A DNA stretch of 64,000 nt, taken from positions 13,836 to 77,835 of the forward strand of contig JBGSBR010000004.1 of the NCBI GenBank assembly GCA_041730495.1, given 5' to 3'. The position numbers and the translations under genes were made by a program. Positions 2-18,891 of this stretch are shown in pieces (the stretch's first letter is position 1; each line of letters opens with the position of its first letter). This DNA is from Weeksellaceae bacterium. Lineage in GTDB: Bacteria; Patescibacteriota; Microgenomatia; UBA1406; GWC2-37-13. The notes beneath the pieces were generated by a model. It was not told where the DNA came from. It saw nothing but the letters and a program-made list of their open reading frames with translations, and did no database searches.

Positions 2-403
2 AATACAAAAAAAGTTTCATCACAGTATCTACTGCGTAACAAAGAGTTAGAACAAAAAATAGAGTTCTTTCTTTATAAATATAATTTGCTTAAAACGTAT
101 CTCGAAGATGATGCTGAGGTATATAGCTATTACAATTTGCTACTCACATTGCTCACAACTATTGAAGTAGATGCTACGCTGACACAGTTTAATATGGATT
201 CTACAAATCTTGCCAACTTCTCCTTGACGTTTGATTCGTATGAAGATGCGATCAAGTTTGTCGATTTAGTCGAGTCACCTGCCTTTCTCAATTATTTTGA
301 AACATTACAGTTAAATAATTTTGCCTTTAACTCAAGCACGACATCATATGATTTAGTGTTGATCGGTCAGTTTAAAGCTATAGAAAACAATGAAAATCAG
401 TAA
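2..403 (+). CDS. PilN-like pilus assembly protein, 5' end cut by the window edge
   Basis: The frame of the 86..403 ORF stays open back to base 2 with no stop, so the gene starts upstream of the window. It overlaps the following PilO-like gene by 14 nt. There is no diagnostic motif; the call rests on context only. Confidence 0.3.
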   Translation, partial: NTKKVSSQYLLRNKELEQKIEFFLYKYNLLKTYLEDDAEVYSYYNLLLTLLTTIEVDATLTQFNMDSTNLANFSLTFDSYEDAIKFVDLVESPAFLNYFETLQLNNFAFNSSTTSYDLVLIGQFKAIENNENQ

Positions 404-2002: not shown

Positions 2003-2378
2003 TTTTGGTTTCTGAGTTAAATTCTTCTAATATTGATCCGAGTACTGCATTCACAAAGGCAAATGAGCGTTCGTTACCCATCTCTTTGGCGAGTTCAACA
2101 GCTTCGTTGATGATGACTTTGGGTGGTTCCTTTTTATCGTACATTAGTTCATATACTGCAAGGCGTAAGATACTGACGTCGATCCGGGCGACATTGTCGA
2201 GTGGGTACTTGGGTGCGTGTCGAGTGATTGTCTCATCGATAGCAGTTACATATTTTTGGATCTCAGGGGTGACTGGCTCTTTTGGATGAGGTAATTTGTG
2301 GCGTTGATCAGGAGCACTAAACGATGTAGCAAATAAATTCTCGATTATATTAACGCGCTCTTGGTGTCGAGGATCCAT
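1983..2378 (-). CDS. nusB: Transcription antitermination factor NusB
   Basis: NusB-like pattern LRLAVYELMY...INEAVELAKEMG...FVNAVLG. Overlaps rnc by 20 nt. Confidence 0.9.
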   Translation of the reverse strand: MDPRHQERVNIIENLFATSFSAPDQRHKLPHPKEPVTPEIQKYVTAIDETITRHAPKYPLDNVARIDVSILRLAVYELMYDKKEPPKVIINEAVELAKEMGNERSFAFVNAVLGSILEEFNSETKNEPSTT

Positions 2379-11515: not shown

Positions 11516-13504
11516 TTAAAGCAGTTTTTCAAGTTCTTCTTTTGCTTCTTTCTCGGTGATATTTCGTTCAGATGAGCTGAAGTAAAAACGGAGTGTCAAA
11601 CTATCTTCATATTGCGAGATCATTTCAATATTTTCGAGTAGCTTACTTTTTTTCATTGCAGCTTCTGTAATCTCGGCATATGTGCGCTCACCTGGCTTAA
11701 TGGTCGCATCAAGTTTGATGACGGCGAACTGCGCTGGCTGCTGGTATTTCGTTACAACTCGTGAGTGCTCAGCTAAGTAATGGAAGTCGAGCTCTACAGC
11801 ACTCACCTGTCCTTTAAGACCTAATTTTTGCATAAGTGGAAGTGATAAAGAGCCCATCAAACCAATTTGATTGCCCTTTGCATCAATGATGCCCGCTTGC
11901 AGTTGTGGTGAGAAAAGTTTAGAAACATGTTTCTTTTCGAATGTTATATCAGTCAGATTTAGCTCTTGTAGTAAAGCTTCGATTACACCTTTTAGTTCGA
12001 AGAAATCACTGTTCATGGCAATACTTAGTTTGTACTGTTCATCAGGTAACTCTGTTGTTTTAGGATACACTTTAGAGATCTCGAAGAAGCTAAGTTTCTC
12101 TCTTCGACCTTGGTTATCTTGAATATTTTTGATCAACGATGGCAATAGTGATAATCGCATATACTCGATCTCAGTCGAGATCGTATTGGCAAGTTTGAGA
12201 TGTTTTTCTTTCGACCAACCGAGACTATCGATCAGATCTGCTGAGATCATAGAGTAGTTCATTACTTCATGGAGACCAAGATGTTTCAAGAACGTTTTCG
12301 CTTTGTTTTGCATGGTGAAAAGCACCTCAACATCATGTGGTTGCTTGATATAAACCATAGGGACGATGCTGTTGGGAAGATTGAAATACCCATATACACG
12401 AGCGACTTCTTCGATGATATCTTGTTTGATCTCGATATCAGCTGCACGGTATGAAGGTACGGTGATTTTGTATGAATCCGCTTTAGCAGCCACAGTAAAT
12501 CCGAGATCTTCAAGGATCGTTTTGACATCTTCATGGCTGATCTCAATACCCATCAGTTTTTGTACGTCTTGCAATGTGACATTGATAGTTTTGATTTCTG
12601 TTTTTTGTGGGTAGATATCGATTAGCTCTGAATCAGCAATACCACCAGTCAATGCATTGATGAGATCTACACCATAGACGAAGGCTGTCTCTACGCGCTC
12701 TGGATCGAGATCTTTTTCGAAATATGTCGCGGCGACAGTACGCTGACCTGTGACCATTGAGGTATGTCGGATATGTCTTTTGTCATAGTGTTGGGCGAAG
12801 AAAACAATCGTTTCGGTATCAGCACTGATGGCACTATTGGCACCACCCATGATGCCACAAAGATCGATAAGTCTACCATCACCATCTTCGATCACGATAT
12901 CACCGCCTGGCAAGATTACTTCTTTATTATCAAGTGTGACAAGTTTTTCACCTTTTTTACTTTCTCTCAGTGTCATTTTCGCGTCTCGGATCTGATCATA
13001 ATCAAACATGTGGATTGGCTGGCCAAGTGCGAGCATGATGTAATTTGAGATATCTACGACATTATTGATGCTTTTGATATCACACATCTCAAGTCTTCTT
13101 TTGATTACTTCTGGTGCGGGTTTGATCTGAACATCAGAGAAAACCATAGCAGTAAAGCGTTTATTGAGTTTAGTATCGGTTTTTACATCAAGAGGTTTAC
13201 GATCATGTGGCTCTGCTTTGAGATTATCGAAGGTATAGGTTTTGAATGGATTGAGTTTCAAACGTGCTTTGATGCCGAAGCGAGGTAAGATAGCTTGAGC
13301 TTCTTGGGCGATACCGAAGACACTTGCCATATCGATACGATTTGAGGTGATTTCGATATCAAGTGAGTAATCATCATCGGCTTCAAATTTTTCGATACGT
13401 TCTACTCCGGGTCCACAAAGTGACAGATACTTCTGTAGCTCATAAGGAGTAGCCTCTGTGTCGAGGTATTCCAACAGCCATTTATAAGTGATTTTGATAT
13501 TCAT
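11516..13504 (-). CDS. pheT: Phenylalanine--tRNA ligase beta subunit (short form)
   Basis: Typical N-terminus MNIKITYKWLLEYL, B3/4 and B5 regions and the C-terminal FDX-ACB-like domain. The OB-fold tRNA-binding insert seen in E. coli PheT is absent. Confidence 0.9.
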   Translation of the reverse strand: MNIKITYKWLLEYLDTEATPYELQKYLSLCGPGVERIEKFEADDDYSLDIEITSNRIDMASVFGIAQEAQAILPRFGIKARLKLNPFKTYTFDNLKAEPHDRKPLDVKTDTKLNKRFTAMVFSDVQIKPAPEVIKRRLEMCDIKSINNVVDISNYIMLALGQPIHMFDYDQIRDAKMTLRESKKGEKLVTLDNKEVILPGGDIVIEDGDGRLIDLCGIMGGANSAISADTETIVFFAQHYDKRHIRHTSMVTGQRTVAATYFEKDLDPERVETAFVYGVDLINALTGGIADSELIDIYPQKTEIKTINVTLQDVQKLMGIEISHEDVKTILEDLGFTVAAKADSYKITVPSYRAADIEIKQDIIEEVARVYGYFNLPNSIVPMVYIKQPHDVEVLFTMQNKAKTFLKHLGLHEVMNYSMISADLIDSLGWSKEKHLKLANTISTEIEYMRLSLLPSLIKNIQDNQGRREKLSFFEISKVYPKTTELPDEQYKLSIAMNSDFFELKGVIEALLQELNLTDITFEKKHVSKLFSPQLQAGIIDAKGNQIGLMGSLSLPLMQKLGLKGQVSAVELDFHYLAEHSRVVTKYQQPAQFAVIKLDATIKPGERTYAEITEAAMKKSKLLENIEMISQYEDSLTLRFYFSSSERNITEKEAKEELEKLL

Positions 13505-13635
13505 AGTTTGTTTTTTTACTCAAATAAAATTTTATACATTCCTCAAGTTGAGGGAGTAAACCTCATTATTCCACACGTGGTGCCGAGCAACCAGTGAGAA
13601 ATGTACAAAATTTCATTCCTCGTAAATTAATATTC

Positions 13636-14706
13636 TTAAAATTGTTCCAAAAATCTGATATCACCACTGTATAAGACACGGATATCATCGATTTTCAAAC
13701 CTTGCTTCATCATAAATACACGCTCAACGCCGAAGCCAAACGCCCAGCCTGAGTACACATCTGGATCGATGTTGGCGGCTTTCAGCACATTGGGGTGGAC
13801 CATACCGGTGCCTCCAAGCTCTAGCCAGCCAGATTTACATAGTTTACATTTTTTATTGTCTACGAGACCAGTACCACCACAGACATCACAGGTGATGTCG
13901 ACCTCAAACGAGGGCTCGGTAAACTGGAAATGAAATGGTCGGAGTCGTGTTTCACGCTCTTCGCCGAAAAATTGCTTAGCGAAGTAATCAATAGTTCCCT
14001 TAAGATGCGTAATATTGATACCTTTATCGACACAAAGTCCTTCAAACTGATGAAACATCGGTACATGTGAGGCATCCCAGTTTGGTCGATATGTTTTACC
14101 GATATTGATCATCCTGATAGGTGGCTCGCCCAGACGCATCATCTCTCTGTTTTGACCAGATGAGGTATGCGGGGTGAGGACCATCTTCCCATACTCTTTG
14201 TGTGGGTCATGTTCGATGAAGAATGTCTCAAAATCATCACGAGCAGGGTGCTCAGGTGGCATGTTGAGTGTCTCAAAGGCAAAATGTTCCCACTCTACCT
14301 CAGGATATGACATGCGGATGAAGCCAATTTTCTCGAAAATACGGCTAATCTCGTTGATTGCATGAGTGACGATATGGAGACTTCCTGTTGGATGCTTGGT
14401 ACCTGGGAGTGTGACATCTATCGTTTGTGAAGCTTCTGTTTGTGACATCAGCTCGGTTTTTTTCGCTGCAAGATCGGCTGTTATCTGCACTTTGAGTTGA
14501 TTTATCTGGCTTCCGAGCTCTTTTCGAGCTTCTGGAGCTGCATCTTTCATGGTTTGCAGTAATGCATTGATGTGACCGTTTCGTCCTAGATATGAGGTTT
14601 CAAGTTGTTGGAGAGATTCAAGAGTGGTAGTAGCTTTAAGCTCAGTAGTAAATTGGTGCTGTAGGTTTGTATGATTGGTCATCGGATCGATTCGTAACTC
14701 GTGCAC
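13636..14706 (-). CDS. pheS: Phenylalanine--tRNA ligase alpha subunit
   Basis: Class II core FQFTEPSFEVD...GWLELGGTGMVHPNVL...GFGVERV, with the CxxC..CxxC insertion found in many PheS proteins. The start is GTG 14706 or ATG 14682. Confidence 0.95.
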   Translation of the reverse strand: MHELRIDPMTNHTNLQHQFTTELKATTTLESLQQLETSYLGRNGHINALLQTMKDAAPEARKELGSQINQLKVQITADLAAKKTELMSQTEASQTIDVTLPGTKHPTGSLHIVTHAINEISRIFEKIGFIRMSYPEVEWEHFAFETLNMPPEHPARDDFETFFIEHDPHKEYGKMVLTPHTSSGQNREMMRLGEPPIRMINIGKTYRPNWDASHVPMFHQFEGLCVDKGINITHLKGTIDYFAKQFFGEERETRLRPFHFQFTEPSFEVDITCDVCGGTGLVDNKKCKLCKSGWLELGGTGMVHPNVLKAANIDPDVYSGWAFGFGVERVFMMKQGLKIDDIRVLYSGDIRFLEQF

Positions 14707-14746
14707 ATTGCTTGATTGTACCTCTCAAAAGAGATAAATACAATGA

Positions 14747-15094
14747 TTATGCTTTGATGTGCTTGATAAATGCATCGAAGGCTTGAGGAACATCAAGTGC
14801 CATTCGTGCCATTACCTTACGATCGAGACCAATATTCTTTTTCTTAAGAAGATTGATGAAGGTGCTATATGTTAAATCGTTTTGTCGTACAGCTGCGTTT
14901 AAGCGGACAATCCAAAGGGATCTCATGTCTCTTTTGCGATGTTTGCGACCAGCGAATGCGTATTCACCAGCATGCAAAACAGCTTCTTTAGCTTTTTTGA
15001 TTTGTTTTCCACGAGATTGCCAGTATCCTTTTGCGAGGTTTAAGATTTTCTTATGTTTACGATTTGTTGTTACTCCACCTTTAACGCGTGTCAT
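14747..15094 (-). CDS. rplT: 50S ribosomal protein L20
   Basis: MTRVKGGVTTNRKHKKILNLAKGYWQSRG is the canonical L20 N-terminus. Confidence 0.95.
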   Translation of the reverse strand: MTRVKGGVTTNRKHKKILNLAKGYWQSRGKQIKKAKEAVLHAGEYAFAGRKHRKRDMRSLWIVRLNAAVRQNDLTYSTFINLLKKKNIGLDRKVMARMALDVPQAFDAFIKHIKA

Positions 15095-15111
15095 ATTTGT
15101 TTATGAATGAT

Positions 15112-15315
15112 TTATGATCGACCTAATAATCTTCTTAATTTTTTTGCCATATCGCCTTCAACCTCTTTCATCTGTAAGAGACTACGAAGTTGTCGTTTAC
15201 TTTTACTTGAACGTAAATGTCGGATTTTCTGTGATCTATGTAATAACTTTCCAGATCCAGTGACCTTGAAACGTTTTGATGCGCCTTTGTGTGTTCTAAT
15301 TTTTTGCTGTGCCAT
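15112..15315 (-). CDS. rpmI: 50S ribosomal protein L35
   Basis: The internal ATG at 15315 gives MAQQKIRTHKGASKRFKVTGSGKLLHR. The 17 extra residues of the tracked ORF are not L35-like. Confidence 0.9.
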   Translation of the reverse strand: MAQQKIRTHKGASKRFKVTGSGKLLHRSQKIRHLRSSKSKRQLRSLLQMKEVEGDMAKKLRRLLGRS

Positions 15316-15396
15316 GTTTATGTCTATTAAAAAAACAATTATATCATTTGTCTCAAATATTGTCATGCCGAACTTATCTGAGCCTCAAAATCTAGG

Positions 15397-15936
15397 TTAC
15401 TTCTTTTTTGCGACGACTGCTCGCACGACTCTACCCTCAAAACGAGGTTCTTTAGAGATGTTGACGTCGCCAAGTTGCTTGATATAGTTATGGATCAACT
15501 CCATTGCCATATCTTTTTTGACGATCTCTCGACCTTTCAATGCAAGGTTTAATCGTACTTGATTACCATCATCGATAAATTCGCGTGTTCGATTGATCAT
15601 ACGTTCGAGATCAGCTGTTGCGATAAACAATGAGATTTTGATATCTTTCACTGTACTTTTTTTCGCACCTTTTTTCGCTTCTTTCAGCTTCTTTTCTTGT
15701 TCATACATGAACTTCTTGAAGTCAGTAAGTTTAGCTACAGGTGGGACAGCTTTGGGAGCGATAAGGACGAGGTCAAGACCTTGTTCTTGGGCTTTTGCCA
15801 ATGCTTCTTCACGAGTAAGTACACCAAACTGTTCTCCATCAGAGCCAAGAACACGAAGTGAAGCTTCTTGTATACGGTTATTCACAAAGAAAAACTGTTT
15901 AGGTGATCTTTGTTGTGGTCGGTAGTTGTTCCTCAA
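15397..15936 (-). CDS. infC: Translation initiation factor IF-3
   Basis: INNRIQEASLRVLGSDGEQFGVLTREEALAKAQEQGLDLV plus the C-terminal domain. The tracked start is TTG; the true (possibly atypical) start is uncertain. Confidence 0.9.
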   Translation of the reverse strand: MRNNYRPQQRSPKQFFFVNNRIQEASLRVLGSDGEQFGVLTREEALAKAQEQGLDLVLIAPKAVPPVAKLTDFKKFMYEQEKKLKEAKKGAKKSTVKDIKISLFIATADLERMINRTREFIDDGNQVRLNLALKGREIVKKDMAMELIHNYIKQLGDVNISKEPRFEGRVVRAVVAKKK

Positions 15937-16003
15937 GTAAAAAATTCAAACTTATTGCAATTCATCATTATAATGGCTCTATAGGCCTTTTTCAAGCTGA
16001 CAA

Positions 16004-17746
16004 TTAGGCTCTTTTAGTGATATCTTGCACTATTTGAGTCTTAAATGTGTCAAAAGCAACAGTTTCACTATTTCCATCACGCTTACGGATACTGATATTG
16101 CTGTCTTCGATCTCTTTATCACCCATGATACCCATATAAAAGACTTTTTCTTTTTGAGCGTTGCGGATTTTCTTCTGCATCGATTCATTCTGACTATCGA
16201 CATCGACACGGACACCAGCTTGGCGCAGCTCAGCGGCCATCTTTTCAGCTGCTTCTACATGACGCTCGGCGATTGGGATGAGCTTCATCTGTACTGGCGT
16301 GAGCCATAGTGGGAATGCCCCAGCATAATGTTCGATCACAAATGCCATGAATCGCTCATGTACAGATAATGGAGCTCGGTGGATGACGAAAATTTCATTA
16401 TTGTCCTGCCCCGCTTCGTCGGTATATCTGAGATCAAAGCGCTTTTTGGCTGCGAAATCAAGCTGGATTGTCGACATTGTCTCTTCACGGCCGATAGCTG
16501 ATTTGAACTGTACATCGACTTTTGGTCCATAAAATGCTGCCTCATCATCAGCTTCACGATACTCAACATTCATCTCTTGCAGTACTTCCCTCAACACCTG
16601 TTCAGAGTACTCCCAGTTTTCAGGTTCATCGAAGTATTTCTCAGTGTGTTTTGGATCCCATTTCGACAATCTAAACCAGTAGTCCTTCAAGCCAAAGATC
16701 GCAAAATACTCTTGAGTGAGCTTGATGACGGCTTTGAATTCGTCTTTGATCTGATCTTTACGACAGTAGATATGAGCATCATTCATCGTCATGCCGCGTA
16801 CACGCAGTAAGCCTGCAAGTGTACCTGAGAGCTCATTGCGATAACACGTACCGTATTCAGCTAGTCTCAGCGGTAATTCACGGTAACTTCTAGGTTTATA
16901 GTTATAAATCGTATGATGATGTGGACAGTTCATCGCCTTGAGATAATACGTGGCATCATCCATCTCCATCCCAGGGTACATTGATTCTTTATAGTACGGT
17001 AGATGTCCAGAGCGCTCAAATAGCTCTTGTTTGGCGATATGAGGTGTGACTACGCGGACATAGCCATATGCAGCTTCTTTCTCTAGTGCGAGTTTCTCGA
17101 TTTCGTTACGCACTATCGTGCCATTTGGGAGCCACATGACGAGGCCTTTGCCGACTGTTTCATCGATGAAGAATAAATCTAATTCTTTCCCAAGTTTACG
17201 ATGATCACGTTTTTTTGCCTCTTCGAGCTGATGCAAATGCTCTTCAAGCTCTTCTTTGGTGGCGAAAGCCGTGCCATAGATGCGCGTTAGCATCGTGTTT
17301 TTCTCATCTCCACGCCAGTATGCACCAGCGACGGATAATAATTTGAAGTGCTTGAGCTCTTCTTTTGGATTTTCGACATGGCCACCTTTACACAGATCCC
17401 AGTACTCACCAGATTTATAGAAGCTCAGTTTTTCACCATTTTTACTAAACTCTTCGATCAGCTCATGTTTATATTCATTATCTGGGTATTCCTTTTTAGC
17501 ATCTTCTGCACTAAGCTCATGTTTTTCGAAGCTTTTCCAGCTTTTCACAATTTCACGCATTTTCTGCTCCATGCGAGATAGATCAGCATCAGAGATTGGC
17601 TCTTTGAATTCGAAATCGAAATAAAAGCCAGTATCGATGGCAGGACCGATCGTACGCTTCGTTTCAGGCCAGATCTGCATGACAGCAGCAGCGAGTAAAT
17701 GAGCTGCACTGTGTCTGAGGTTATCGAGATGTTGTTGTTTATCCAT
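16004..17746 (-). CDS. thrS: Threonine--tRNA ligase lacking the N-terminal TGS domain
   Basis: Begins at the editing/SAD region (RHSAAHLLAAAVMQIWP). Has the class II core and an anticodon-binding domain. Confidence 0.95.
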   Translation of the reverse strand: MDKQQHLDNLRHSAAHLLAAAVMQIWPETKRTIGPAIDTGFYFDFEFKEPISDADLSRMEQKMREIVKSWKSFEKHELSAEDAKKEYPDNEYKHELIEEFSKNGEKLSFYKSGEYWDLCKGGHVENPKEELKHFKLLSVAGAYWRGDEKNTMLTRIYGTAFATKEELEEHLHQLEEAKKRDHRKLGKELDLFFIDETVGKGLVMWLPNGTIVRNEIEKLALEKEAAYGYVRVVTPHIAKQELFERSGHLPYYKESMYPGMEMDDATYYLKAMNCPHHHTIYNYKPRSYRELPLRLAEYGTCYRNELSGTLAGLLRVRGMTMNDAHIYCRKDQIKDEFKAVIKLTQEYFAIFGLKDYWFRLSKWDPKHTEKYFDEPENWEYSEQVLREVLQEMNVEYREADDEAAFYGPKVDVQFKSAIGREETMSTIQLDFAAKKRFDLRYTDEAGQDNNEIFVIHRAPLSVHERFMAFVIEHYAGAFPLWLTPVQMKLIPIAERHVEAAEKMAAELRQAGVRVDVDSQNESMQKKIRNAQKEKVFYMGIMGDKEIEDSNISIRKRDGNSETVAFDTFKTQIVQDITKRA

Positions 17747-17760
17747 AAGTATTTAGTGAA

Positions 17761-17789
17761 ATTATATATCCTCCTTCACCTGCGGTAAA
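17761..17789 (-). promoter_or_regulatory. Possible proximal thrS promoter
   Basis: Minus strand: TTTACC (17789..17784), 17 nt, TATAAT (17766..17761), 14 nt, ATG 17746. Confidence 0.3.
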
Positions 17790-17854
17790 CTCAGGTTTCG
17801 GCGGGATTTCGTTTTGTTATTTGGTATTGCTAATAGTTTATATTAAAAACTCAT

Positions 17855-17877
17855 AAAAAAACCCGCCTGAGGGCGGG
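17855..17877 (-). terminator. Intrinsic terminator inside the thrS leader (attenuator segments 3:4)
   Basis: Minus strand CCCGCC-CUCA-GGCGGG followed by seven U (17861..17855). Confidence 0.7.
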
Positions 17878-17909
17878 GTCTGTAATAAACACTACAAAAC
17901 CACGCCCTG

Positions 17910-17954
17910 TCAGGCGGTTGTAGTGGTAATGATGTTAGCTTTGTATACGAACAT
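17910..17954 (-). CDS. thrS leader peptide candidate MFVYKANIITTTTA
   Basis: ATG 6 nt after a -10 box. Carries four consecutive Thr codons ACC ACT ACA ACC, and its stop lies in the loop of a hairpin upstream of the terminator. Confidence 0.6.
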   Translation of the reverse strand: MFVYKANIITTTTA

Positions 17955-17960
17955 ACTGCA

Positions 17961-17989
17961 ACTATATAAGATTACTGAATGATTGTCAA
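17961..17989 (-). promoter_or_regulatory. Promoter of the thrS leader
   Basis: Minus strand: TTGACA (17989..17984), 17 nt, TATAGT (17966..17961). Confidence 0.6.
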
Positions 17990-17996
17990 CATAGGC

Positions 17997-18024
17997 TTGA
18001 AAGCTGTTAAATATAGGGTATAAT
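17997..18024 (+). promoter_or_regulatory. Divergent promoter abutting the lipoprotein gene (leaderless)
   Basis: TTGAAA (17997..18002), 16 nt, TATAAT (18019..18024), 6 nt, ATG 18031. Confidence 0.5.
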
Positions 18025-18030
18025 ATTACT

Positions 18031-18891
18031 ATGGGATATAAAGAACAAGTTGTAGGTCTCGCATTTGTATTAGGTCTAACTGGCTGTTCAGGGCTACCAC
18101 CTGAACAAAAGTCTCCTTTAGAACCTTTTGAAAACAAAAATACTCCTGTTCTTACGACACCAACCTCAGAAGCAGTGATTGATCCTTTTTGTAGTCCAGT
18201 TGTTGAATCTGGTACTCAATCCATAGAAGATAGTATTGTTTTCACTACAGACGATATTCCTTACTATAATCTCAATACTGCGAATGTTGCTACACTCGTC
18301 TCTACAATTCAAAGTGATATGAAAGATGGACTTATATATGGATATATACAACATCAAGCTAGTTCTACCAATGTAAGTAGTACTCCAATAAACTATTCTG
18401 AGTTTCAAACTGCACCACGTCAAGTAGAAGCTTTAGCCATAAATGTCGGGGTATTTTGTAATCATAATGGTTTACCTGCAGATAAAACTACTAGAAATGG
18501 TCTTGTTAGTTTGAACTACAGCGATAAAGCCTTTACGATTATTGCTGAACCTCCTGCTAATGTACAAGGGGTTGAAAACGATATTCTTGCCCAACTGAAC
18601 CAAGGAATGGTGGAAATGATGGTAAATGCTCATTTACAAAGTGGTCGCTATACAGATCAAGAAATTCAAGATATATCTTATGCATATGGGTTAAGTTATT
18701 TTTTGATTCGAAATGTAGGTATTGAAACCCATCAAGATTATGTGCGATATGTACAAAATAGTGTGAATGGGGACTCCACAGTTGAGGAAGGATTATCGAT
18801 TCCTATAATATCTTCCAATGCTTTTACGCGCATGGTACAGGTAGTAAACGATGGTGATATCATGACGTATACCCCTATGGATCAGTATTAA
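18031..18891 (+). CDS. Hypothetical lipoprotein
   Basis: Signal peptide with the lipobox LGLTGC (Cys19). No family assignable. Confidence 0.6.
   Translation: MGYKEQVVGLAFVLGLTGCSGLPPEQKSPLEPFENKNTPVLTTPTSEAVIDPFCSPVVESGTQSIEDSIVFTTDDIPYYNLNTANVATLVSTIQSDMKDGLIYGYIQHQASSTNVSSTPINYSEFQTAPRQVEALAINVGVFCNHNGLPADKTTRNGLVSLNYSDKAFTIIAEPPANVQGVENDILAQLNQGMVEMMVNAHLQSGRYTDQEIQDISYAYGLSYFLIRNVGIETHQDYVRYVQNSVNGDSTVEEGLSIPIISSNAFTRMVQVVNDGDIMTYTPMDQY

Follow-up and report, generated by a model that had tools for sequence, protein, structure and literature searches.

A candidate threonine-codon leader-peptide attenuator in front of thrS in bacteria of the Candidate Phyla Radiation

In this study we analyse the leader region of thrS, the gene of threonyl-tRNA synthetase (ThrRS), in a stretch of 64,000 nucleotides (nt) of contig JBGSBR010000004.1 (assembly GCA_041730495.1), referred to below as the window. 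The leader, which lies on the minus strand upstream of thrS, very probably acts as a ribosome-mediated (leader-peptide) transcription attenuator that tunes thrS to charged tRNA-Thr. At the sequence level it carries all the features of the classical leader-peptide attenuators, namely a promoter of its own with a credible translation start, co-oriented upstream of the regulated gene, a cluster of cognate codons near the 3' end of the leader open reading frame (ORF), an intrinsic terminator between this ORF and the gene, and an antiterminator whose predicted formation would exclude the terminator. The same arrangement, a short ORF (sORF) with a Thr run followed by a terminator, is found upstream of thrS in about 20 distinct loci of the Candidate Phyla Radiation (CPR, or Patescibacteria). 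The alternative pairings, their geometry relative to the codons, their conservation and their co-variation are all in silico results, and given the recurrence in about 20 relatives we take the feature to be real.

The leader unit begins with the promoter P1, which is the top-ranked match (11/12) in a 7-kb consensus scan. The sORF behind it reads ATG TTC GTA TAC AAA GCT AAC ATC ATT ACC ACT ACA ACC GCC TGA, with the cognate codons at positions 10-13 of 14 (for the coordinates of all features, see Table 1), and nowhere else on the minus strand of the window does a run of at least four ACN codons occur. UGA is the stop codon in 6 of the 51 ORFs of the window, and thus the standard genetic code applies. 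The spacing of the P1 -10 box implies a leaderless transcript, which would start at or beside A17954. In fact, Shine-Dalgarno sites are detected in just 2 of the 51 ORFs, while a TATAAT-like -10 box lies 5-8 nt before the start in 14 of them, with a mode of 6 nt (2.7% for all ATG triplets), and leaderless mRNA looks like the default start format for first genes in this genome. The start of the sORF (-10-N6-ATG) has the format of the real genes in the window, which makes its translation credible. The neighbour upstream of the leader is a divergent gene starting at 18031 on the plus strand, and therefore the leader hairpin cannot be the terminator of a preceding gene. Every coordinate given in the initial annotation for the promoter (TTGACA-17-TATAGT-6-ATG) and for the ORF of 15 triplets, with two Ile and then four Thr codons, holds on reading the minus strand. 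The leaderless start, which was noted there as well, is nothing peculiar to this leader and turns out to be the norm of the genome.

The leader has a fold of -37.9 kcal/mol, with z = -4.9 against shuffled sequences. Hairpin 1:2 has the Thr codons as its 5' arm, and its inner helix CGCC/GGCG closes a loop that contains the UGA; the terminator scan, too, picks up this inner hairpin, at 17916-17903. Hairpin 1:2 would act as a protector and possibly as a pause hairpin. In the predicted fold, segment 2 (GGGCGUGG, 17907-17900) and segment 3 (CCCCGCCC, 17878-17871) form seven pairs with one bulged U, and the antiterminator to which they belong would sequester the 5' arm of the terminator, so that the two structures exclude each other in the model. 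The terminator ends 108 nt before the thrS ATG, and apart from it the minus strand of the window has just one other perfect GC hairpin that is strong and followed by a U-run. In addition, a basal helix of CCGCCUGA (17917-17910) and UCAGGCGG (17870-17863) extends the terminator into one long hairpin.

The 100-nt leader was then folded at minimum energy with the ribosome footprint forced to be single-stranded. With no ribosome the long hairpin reaches to the U-tract at -37.2 kcal/mol, and with the ribosome on Ile8 the same structure is obtained at -35.5 kcal/mol; a constrained fold with hairpin 1:2 and the terminator (3:4) gives -30.0 kcal/mol, as compared with the -37.2 kcal/mol of the long hairpin. 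Because the basal helix abuts the U-tract, the long hairpin of the untranslated leader is terminator-like, and termination is expected. With the A site on Thr10-12, the antiterminator is the sole remaining structure (about -20 kcal/mol) and GGCGGG is unpaired, where the state at Thr10 is obtained with the widest footprint only (narrower footprints spare part of the basal helix) and the state at Thr12 with two narrower footprints, reaching 11 or 13 nt downstream. Read-through is expected here, since the terminator 5' arm is sequestered and GGCGGG is left unpaired. Once Thr13, Ala14 or the stop codon is in the A site, the ribosome covers the G-rich strand, and the result is the short terminator. 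Thus, in the footprint-masked folds, a ribosome at the stop masks the 5' strand of the antiterminator and a stall on the Thr codons frees it, in agreement with what the initial annotation had proposed. Its other structural elements are also recovered: the Thr codons as the 5' arm of hairpin 1 with the UGA in the loop, the pairing of segments 2 and 3 at seven of eight positions, and the terminator, found again by the terminator scan. As for its 1:2/2:3/3:4 logic, the switch is supported, with a refinement for the ground state in the absence of translation, which is a single long hairpin having the antiterminator in its upper part.

Downstream of the terminator, the spacer 17862-17717 (146 nt, to just inside thrS) has no significant structure (z = -1.3). 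A side observation in this spacer is a CCCGCC-GAAAC-CUGAG stretch (17790-17805, minus strand), which is the reverse complement of the terminator loop and 3' arm (CUCAGGCGGG, 17871-17862) when 5 inserted nt are disregarded; in read-through transcripts it might pair with the 3' arm once this is free, or it could be a remnant of a duplication.

On the proposed mechanism, transcription would start from P1 at or beside the A of ATG 17954, and the 14-codon leader would for this reason be translated from a leaderless mRNA. When Thr-tRNA is plentiful, the ribosome would reach codons 13-14 or the UGA and cover the G-rich strand 17908-17900, leaving 17877-17872 free to pair with GGCGGG at 17867-17862, and the hairpin with U7 would stop transcription at about 17855. 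When Thr-tRNA is scarce, the ribosome would stall with Thr codons 10-12 in the A site, and the free G-rich strand would pair with the C-rich strand as soon as the latter is made; no terminator would form, and RNA polymerase would continue into thrS and probably also into infC-rpmI-rplT. If the leader is not translated, either the long hairpin or the pair of 1:2 and 3:4 would be present, and either is expected to terminate. Since charged tRNA-Thr depends on ThrRS activity, such a switch would close a feedback loop on the enzyme, like that of Escherichia coli pheST.

We now present an overall view of the leader in related thrS loci, of which 98 were obtained by ThrS scans of genome and metagenome collections and 3 more by look-ups of the closest relatives. 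In the homologous leaders a G-rich strand that is complementary to the 5' arm of the terminator comes after the stop codon, and the terminator comes next. The Thr run of the leader peptides is conserved and the rest of their sequence is not. On the whole, of 45 regions upstream of thrS, 10 have a run of at least four ACN codons, with 0.45 expected (Poisson P 6e-11), and the opposite strand of the same 45 regions has none. In a census of distinct terminators, a Thr-rich sORF ending 20-40 nt before the terminator is found for 18 of the 40 located at most 700 nt upstream of thrS, compared with 2 of the 178 terminators found elsewhere in these loci (Fisher p 1.8e-13). In the last 12 codons the share of Thr is 28.9%, as compared with 4.9% for the controls, and no other residue is enriched. 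The geometry is also kept, with 24-37 nt from the stop codon to the terminator arm and sORFs of 11-21 codons in 15 of 16 leaders. The start format recurs as well: the best -10-like hexamer (at least 4/6 matches, with A at position 2 and T at position 6) lies 6-8 nt before the sORF start in 13 of 17 homologous leaders, and in 10 of the 17 a 10-11/12 promoter ends at this distance. Outside the CPR, 25 thrS loci (Acidimicrobiia and others) show no Thr run of at least four codons, and an sORF with three Thr codons is present in two of them; a leader comparable to that of the CPR family is found in none of the 25.

The pairing partners change together from locus to locus. The terminator stems vary (CCCGCC, CCCUCC, ACCCCGC, CGCAAAGACCUCUUC and others), and in every one of these loci the stretch that follows the Thr run is complementary to the terminator 5' arm of the same locus and is a near copy of its 3' arm, the clearest case of co-variation being L010 (GAAGAGGCCUUUGCG versus GAAGAGGUCUUUGCG). 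Cognate duplexes average -13.5 kcal/mol and non-cognate ones -10.0 kcal/mol (permutation p 2e-5, n=18 leaders), a statistic that is built on per-locus duplex energies and permutation in place of an alignment and is not of the R-scape type. For the switch itself, pairing probabilities on shortened transcripts replaced the noisy full-length minimum-energy calls of whether the terminator is formed. With transcripts that end short of the terminator 3' arm, pairing of the 5' arm is 50-100% in 12 of 12 homologues until the ribosome passes the Thr run, and in the same 12 it falls to between 0 and about 37% with the ribosome at the last codons or the stop. The conservation that the initial annotation had suggested looking for is borne out for the Thr run, the stop position and the pairing, and not in the form of an alignment-based consensus.

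Table 1. Positions of the features of the thrS leader and of related elements in the window, with the leader peptides of homologous CPR loci
Feature	Positions	Strand	Description
P1 -35 box	17984..17989	-	TTGACA; TTGACA-like -35 boxes also before homologous leaders
P1 -10 box	17961..17966	-	TATAGT; 17-nt spacer after the -35 box; 6 nt ahead of the sORF ATG
Leader sORF	17910..17954	-	14 codons and UGA, MFVYKANIITTTTA; ATG 17954-17952, stop 17912-17910
Regulatory Thr codons	17916..17927	-	ACC ACU ACA ACC (codons 10-13); preceded by two Ile codons, 17928-17933
Hairpin 1:2 (predicted)	17890..17925	-	CACUACAA 17925-17918 (Thr codons) pairs with UUGUAGUG 17897-17890
Antiterminator, upper hairpin (predicted)	17870..17908	-	AGGGCG-GG-UUUGUAGU / AUUACAGA-CC-CCGCCCU; -20.4 kcal/mol
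Intrinsic terminator	17855..17877	-	CCCGCC-CUCA-GGCGGG and U7; short hairpin -12.1 kcal/mol
Candidate second promoter P2	17761..17789	-	TTTACC-17-TATAAT; scan 10/12; 14 nt before the thrS ATG
thrS, regulated gene	16004..17746	-	580 aa; Pfam tRNA_SAD, tRNA-synt_2b, HGTP_anticodon
Arg-codon sORF, leaderless, with its terminator	42024-42151	-	MIHLSIVIDVRRRTLRRDSMCYGLQA (5 Arg in 7 codons); TTGACA...TATACT/TACTAT, then ATG
Alternative thrS element, L005	~2090-2210		
Alternative thrS element, L008	~2130-2250		
Alternative thrS element, L011	~200-335		
Alternative thrS element, L014	~2080-2200		
Leader peptide, L001			MEIVRCITTTKTTA
Leader peptide, L095			MEKVQCIITTKSTA
Leader peptide, L006			MKKIVRLTTTTTFS
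Leader peptide, L009			MKFVMAATATTTTIPG
Leader peptide, L010			MDRNIFKTTAATTTTSP
Leader peptide, L015			MQLQTTTTTAL
Leader peptide, L022			MAFVTTTTTTP
Leader peptide, L033			MVFVTTTTTTTS
Leader peptide, L049			MKFLVRTTTTTTTIPAGE
Leader peptide, L068			MKRDCFLTTTTTIPAGE
Leader peptide, L078			MQQYITTTTSTMAP
Leader peptide, L100			MKINSVLVITLVTQTT
Further loci with Thr-run leader and terminator			L004, L021, L059, L067, L074, L091, L097

Several points weigh against an attenuator or would narrow its role. The transcription start, the translation of the sORF, the premature 3' end and the response to threonine are all inferred from sequence. The distribution is patchy: the closest ThrS relatives (L008, L011 and L099, with 77-78% identity) are without the leader and have another RNA element instead, or have thrS inside an operon, and the latter is the case in many CPR loci. 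The full-length minimum-energy folds give a clean switch in only about 7 of the 12 homologues, and the remaining ones need a kinetic, co-transcriptional argument. Alignment of 10 leaders by MAFFT and RNAalifold misaligns the hairpin registers and yields 3 consensus pairs only. Finally, the promoter-like site P2 is located between the terminator and thrS, and if active it could supply thrS independently, so that the attenuator would be reduced or bypassed, or would govern only part of the expression. If thrS were indeed transcribed from P2, the unit upstream might be a stand-alone small gene, encoding a small RNA (sRNA) or a 14-residue peptide with its own terminator, and linked to thrS by position or through an RNA acting in trans. 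Attenuator-derived RNAs do act in trans elsewhere (rnTrpL, PMC6614838), P2 scores 10/12, and several relatives also have a -10-like hexamer 8-14 nt ahead of thrS. However, these proximal sites mostly lack a -35 box and reach 6-9/12, compared with 10-11 for P1, and in one locus (L095) the thrS ATG follows the U-tract after only 12 nt. Besides, the peptide is not conserved outside the Thr run, the unit is always upstream of and co-oriented with thrS with Thr-rich sORFs nearly absent before other terminators, and a stand-alone gene would leave the co-varying antiterminator without a purpose; we regard it as quite unlikely.

It is also conceivable that the leader is an attenuator without specificity for Thr, responding to general translation capacity or to leaderless initiation, or that it works through Rho or mRNA stability and not through a terminator switch. 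A stall anywhere in codons 10-12 yields the same structure, two Ile codons stand before the Thr run here and in several relatives, and the untranslated fold predicts termination, hence the efficiency of initiation should count too. This reading is nevertheless unlikely in our view, as Thr is the only residue enriched, the regulated gene is always thrS, and the Thr codons occupy precisely those positions at which a stalled ribosome sets the antiterminator free. That a promoter-like site, a short ORF and a terminator have come together by chance is hardly credible: although the promoter-like matches of the region (19) do not exceed those of shuffles (18.7), the Thr run is unique and the strong terminator nearly unique on the minus strand, and for the recurrence among related loci p is about 1e-11 to 1e-13. 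The tests of recurrence and co-variation have effectively excluded this explanation already.

Upstream of thrS, four loci among the closest relatives (L005, L008, L011 and L014) have a different conserved element of about 130 nt in place of the Thr leader. The element has an invariant ACCAA (the Thr codon ACC and A), a co-varying 5-bp hairpin, two UGGA motifs, and a long co-varying hairpin AAGACCACC...GUUGGAACGUUUGGAAC (apical loop)...GGUGGU followed by U8. At E <= 1 there is no match to an Rfam family, T-box included. Its UGGA motifs could pair with the 3' end of tRNA, and it may be a novel tRNA- or ThrRS-sensing thrS leader. Its existence in sister CPR lineages, together with the control of thrS in Bacillus and E. 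coli, speaks for a sensor made of RNA only, either a T-box-like tRNA-binding leader or a ThrRS-binding mimic of the tRNA-Thr anticodon arm, in which the sORF would be incidental. Such a sensor is very unlikely for the leader studied here, which is merely 100 nt long, has hairpin loops UUUA and CUCA that are not anticodon-like, and gives no match to T-box or another Rfam family at permissive thresholds; a search of the window for the alternative element was negative, and the start geometry of the sORF and the position of the Thr run are conserved. The pattern of the two leader types resembles the switching between sensing systems that is known for synthetase genes (PMC2965389), and a regulatory role of the thrS leader region is thereby indirectly supported.

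Some further observations concern the leaders of single loci. In L006 (2140-2361, Microgenomates) a tRNA gene has its 3' end 10 nt ahead of the Thr leader, and no promoter belonging to this leader can be recognised; it may be transcribed together with the upstream tRNAs and become exposed when these are processed. L091 (1085-1098) and L096 (920-933) have a common motif, AACCGCGGU(A/U)CGGC, in an imperfect long hairpin just upstream of thrS and without a U-tract. Besides this motif, a Thr-run leader (MNKKRLTTTTTITQ...) is present in L091 with its terminator 351 nt upstream, and a small ORF lies between this leader and the hairpin motif. As for the closest relatives P0002 and P0004, one has thrS 34 nt after another synthetase gene, and in the other a 124-aa ORF and thrS follow a Thr-containing leader.

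The gene behind the leader is identified as thrS by its Pfam domains, and thus the amino acid presumably sensed matches the downstream enzyme, as the initial annotation had it; the N-terminal TGS domain is missing from this ThrS according to Pfam. The minus-strand order is thrS-infC-rpmI-rplT-pheS-pheT (window 11516-17746), identical to that of E. coli, and infC begins with TTG in the mechanical ORF list. No Phe leader is found upstream of pheS, where a 40-nt gap has TACAAT 8 nt before the GTG start, nor does the window have a leader before a Trp/Tyr-type synthetase gene. ThrS has at least 8000 homologues, the best 120 showing 67-78% identity, and among these 120 all the named ones are CPR/Patescibacteria (Woesebacteria, Microgenomates, Pacebacteria, Levybacteria and Dojkabacteria/WS6). 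The one identical ThrS (P0001, window 16004-17746) carries the NCBI name 'Weeksellaceae bacterium', a metagenome-assembled genome (MAG). This label is probably a binning error, i.e., the contig is mis-binned, since the named close homologues are all CPR and the style of promoters and start sites is not Bacteroidota-like. Many related MAG records named 'uncultured Gammaproteobacteria/Pseudomonadales' likewise appear to be mislabelled.

One more leaderless sORF of the window, rich in Arg codons, is followed by a strong terminator CCCCCGG-AUAAUA-CCGGGGG with U8. Downstream of it are the ORFs 41581-41997 and 40848-41324 (no Pfam match), an S-Me-THD-like gene and a LOG-family gene. When this unit (42151-42024) is folded with ribosome masks, no clean switch is seen.

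Gene regulation in the CPR has been little described, and the thrS leader offers a sequence-defined switch that is recognisable across many CPR lineages. If it works as inferred, these bacteria would monitor charged tRNA-Thr and adjust the synthetase accordingly, transcription and translation would be coupled closely enough for attenuation even with a leaderless leader mRNA, and the leader-peptide control of aminoacyl-tRNA synthetases, known in Proteobacteria, Actinobacteria and a few Firmicutes, would reach a fourth deep lineage. A broader view, which we put forward tentatively and hold to be less probable than not, is that the CPR widely run ThrRS feedback by attenuation from leaderless mRNAs, this being one of at least two interchangeable types of thrS leader, the other being the possibly tRNA-sensing element. 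Were this true, tight coupling of transcription and translation and leaderless initiation of the 70S type would be implied for the CPR, and one gene would repeatedly have changed from one sensing system to another. Annotations are likely to miss the Thr-run sORFs or to get them wrong, and the family could enter RNA and leader databases. The novelty lies in the phylum, in how widely the family extends and in the sister RNA element. The mechanism is that of the textbook, and being classical it makes the conceptual surprise moderate.

Comparison with the known RNA families was made by Rfam scans of 17000-18600 at E <= 10, of the whole window at gathering score, and of 24 related thrS loci. In all of them tRNAs alone passed, with P9, L21_leader and Thr_leader below threshold, and the T-box (RF00230) gave no match in any of the three. 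Membership of Thr_leader (RF00506) was rejected at 17.2 bits (E 3.5, gathering score 55). The best sub-threshold match, P9 (RF00624; 26 bits, E 0.0055, gathering score 43), was also rejected. It shares an AUU AUU ACC-type stretch, a small hairpin and then a CCCGCC/GGCGGG terminator with our leader, but the match is mainly driven by the terminator. In Pseudomonas aeruginosa PAO1, P9 is located at 1,436,491-1,436,618 between genes of 510 nt and 405 nt, and Table 1 of its description shows no link to thrS (PMC1524904), for which reason this lead was dropped. Apart from this, the P9 consensus opens with AUU AUU AUU ACC and ends in a terminator, in PAO1 44 nt upstream of the co-oriented 405-nt gene (PMC1524904, Table 1), and P9 itself may be a leader-peptide attenuator and not a trans-acting sRNA. 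An E. coli-type thrS operator was set aside in view of the distance of the element from the ATG (108 nt), its loops UUUA/CUCA and the unstructured spacer (z = -1.3). Our literature searches for leader peptides or attenuation in CPR/Patescibacteria, and for Thr codons at thrS, returned nothing relevant, and as far as they reach a Thr-codon attenuator of thrS is apparently new for the CPR.

Among the known systems, thrS is controlled by a translational operator in E. coli and by a T-box in Bacillus. Both concern the same gene, act in its 5' leader and respond to the status of ThrRS or tRNA-Thr; unlike the CPR leader, they sense the ThrRS protein or the uncharged tRNA directly, and no leader peptide is involved. 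Closer in mechanism is E. coli pheST, a classical leader-peptide attenuator (pheM) with Phe codons in a leader of about 14 codons. The two systems have in common a synthetase operon, clustered cognate codons, alternative antiterminator and terminator, and feedback by charged tRNA (cf. PMC1262725), and the window even shares the gene neighbourhood of pheST. They differ in that Phe and pheST are replaced here by Thr and thrS, in another phylum and with no sequence similarity, and in that the E. coli leader is led by a Shine-Dalgarno site whereas the CPR leader would be leaderless. E. coli thrL likewise has a Thr run with adjacent Ile codons and then a terminator, and stalling is sensed alike, but it controls the biosynthetic thrABC and not a synthetase. 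CPR bacteria are generally regarded as symbionts with tiny genomes and without amino-acid biosynthesis.

Other precedents come from further synthetase genes. Classical attenuators have been predicted for trpS and leuS in Streptomyces (PMC1262725), and leader-peptide attenuators are known or predicted for hisS paralogues in bacilli (PMC2965389). For Streptomyces lividans TK24, a leaderless thrL before thrS was proposed from RNA-seq, together with alaL-alaS (PMC8079986). The initial annotation had considered a leader-peptide attenuator on thrS to be unusual; this holds for the CPR, where the case is apparently new, but with synthetase attenuators known or predicted elsewhere (pheST, trpS and leuS, hisS, and thrL of S. 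lividans) the thrS leader is not unprecedented. The likeness to Streptomyces lies in the leaderless sORF placed immediately upstream of a synthetase gene. The thrL of S. lividans, MKRVRPFLETTPGFVPAR, has two Thr codons and no clear intrinsic terminator (PMC8079986), whereas the CPR family is distinguished by 3-7 Thr codons, canonical terminators and co-varying antiterminators.

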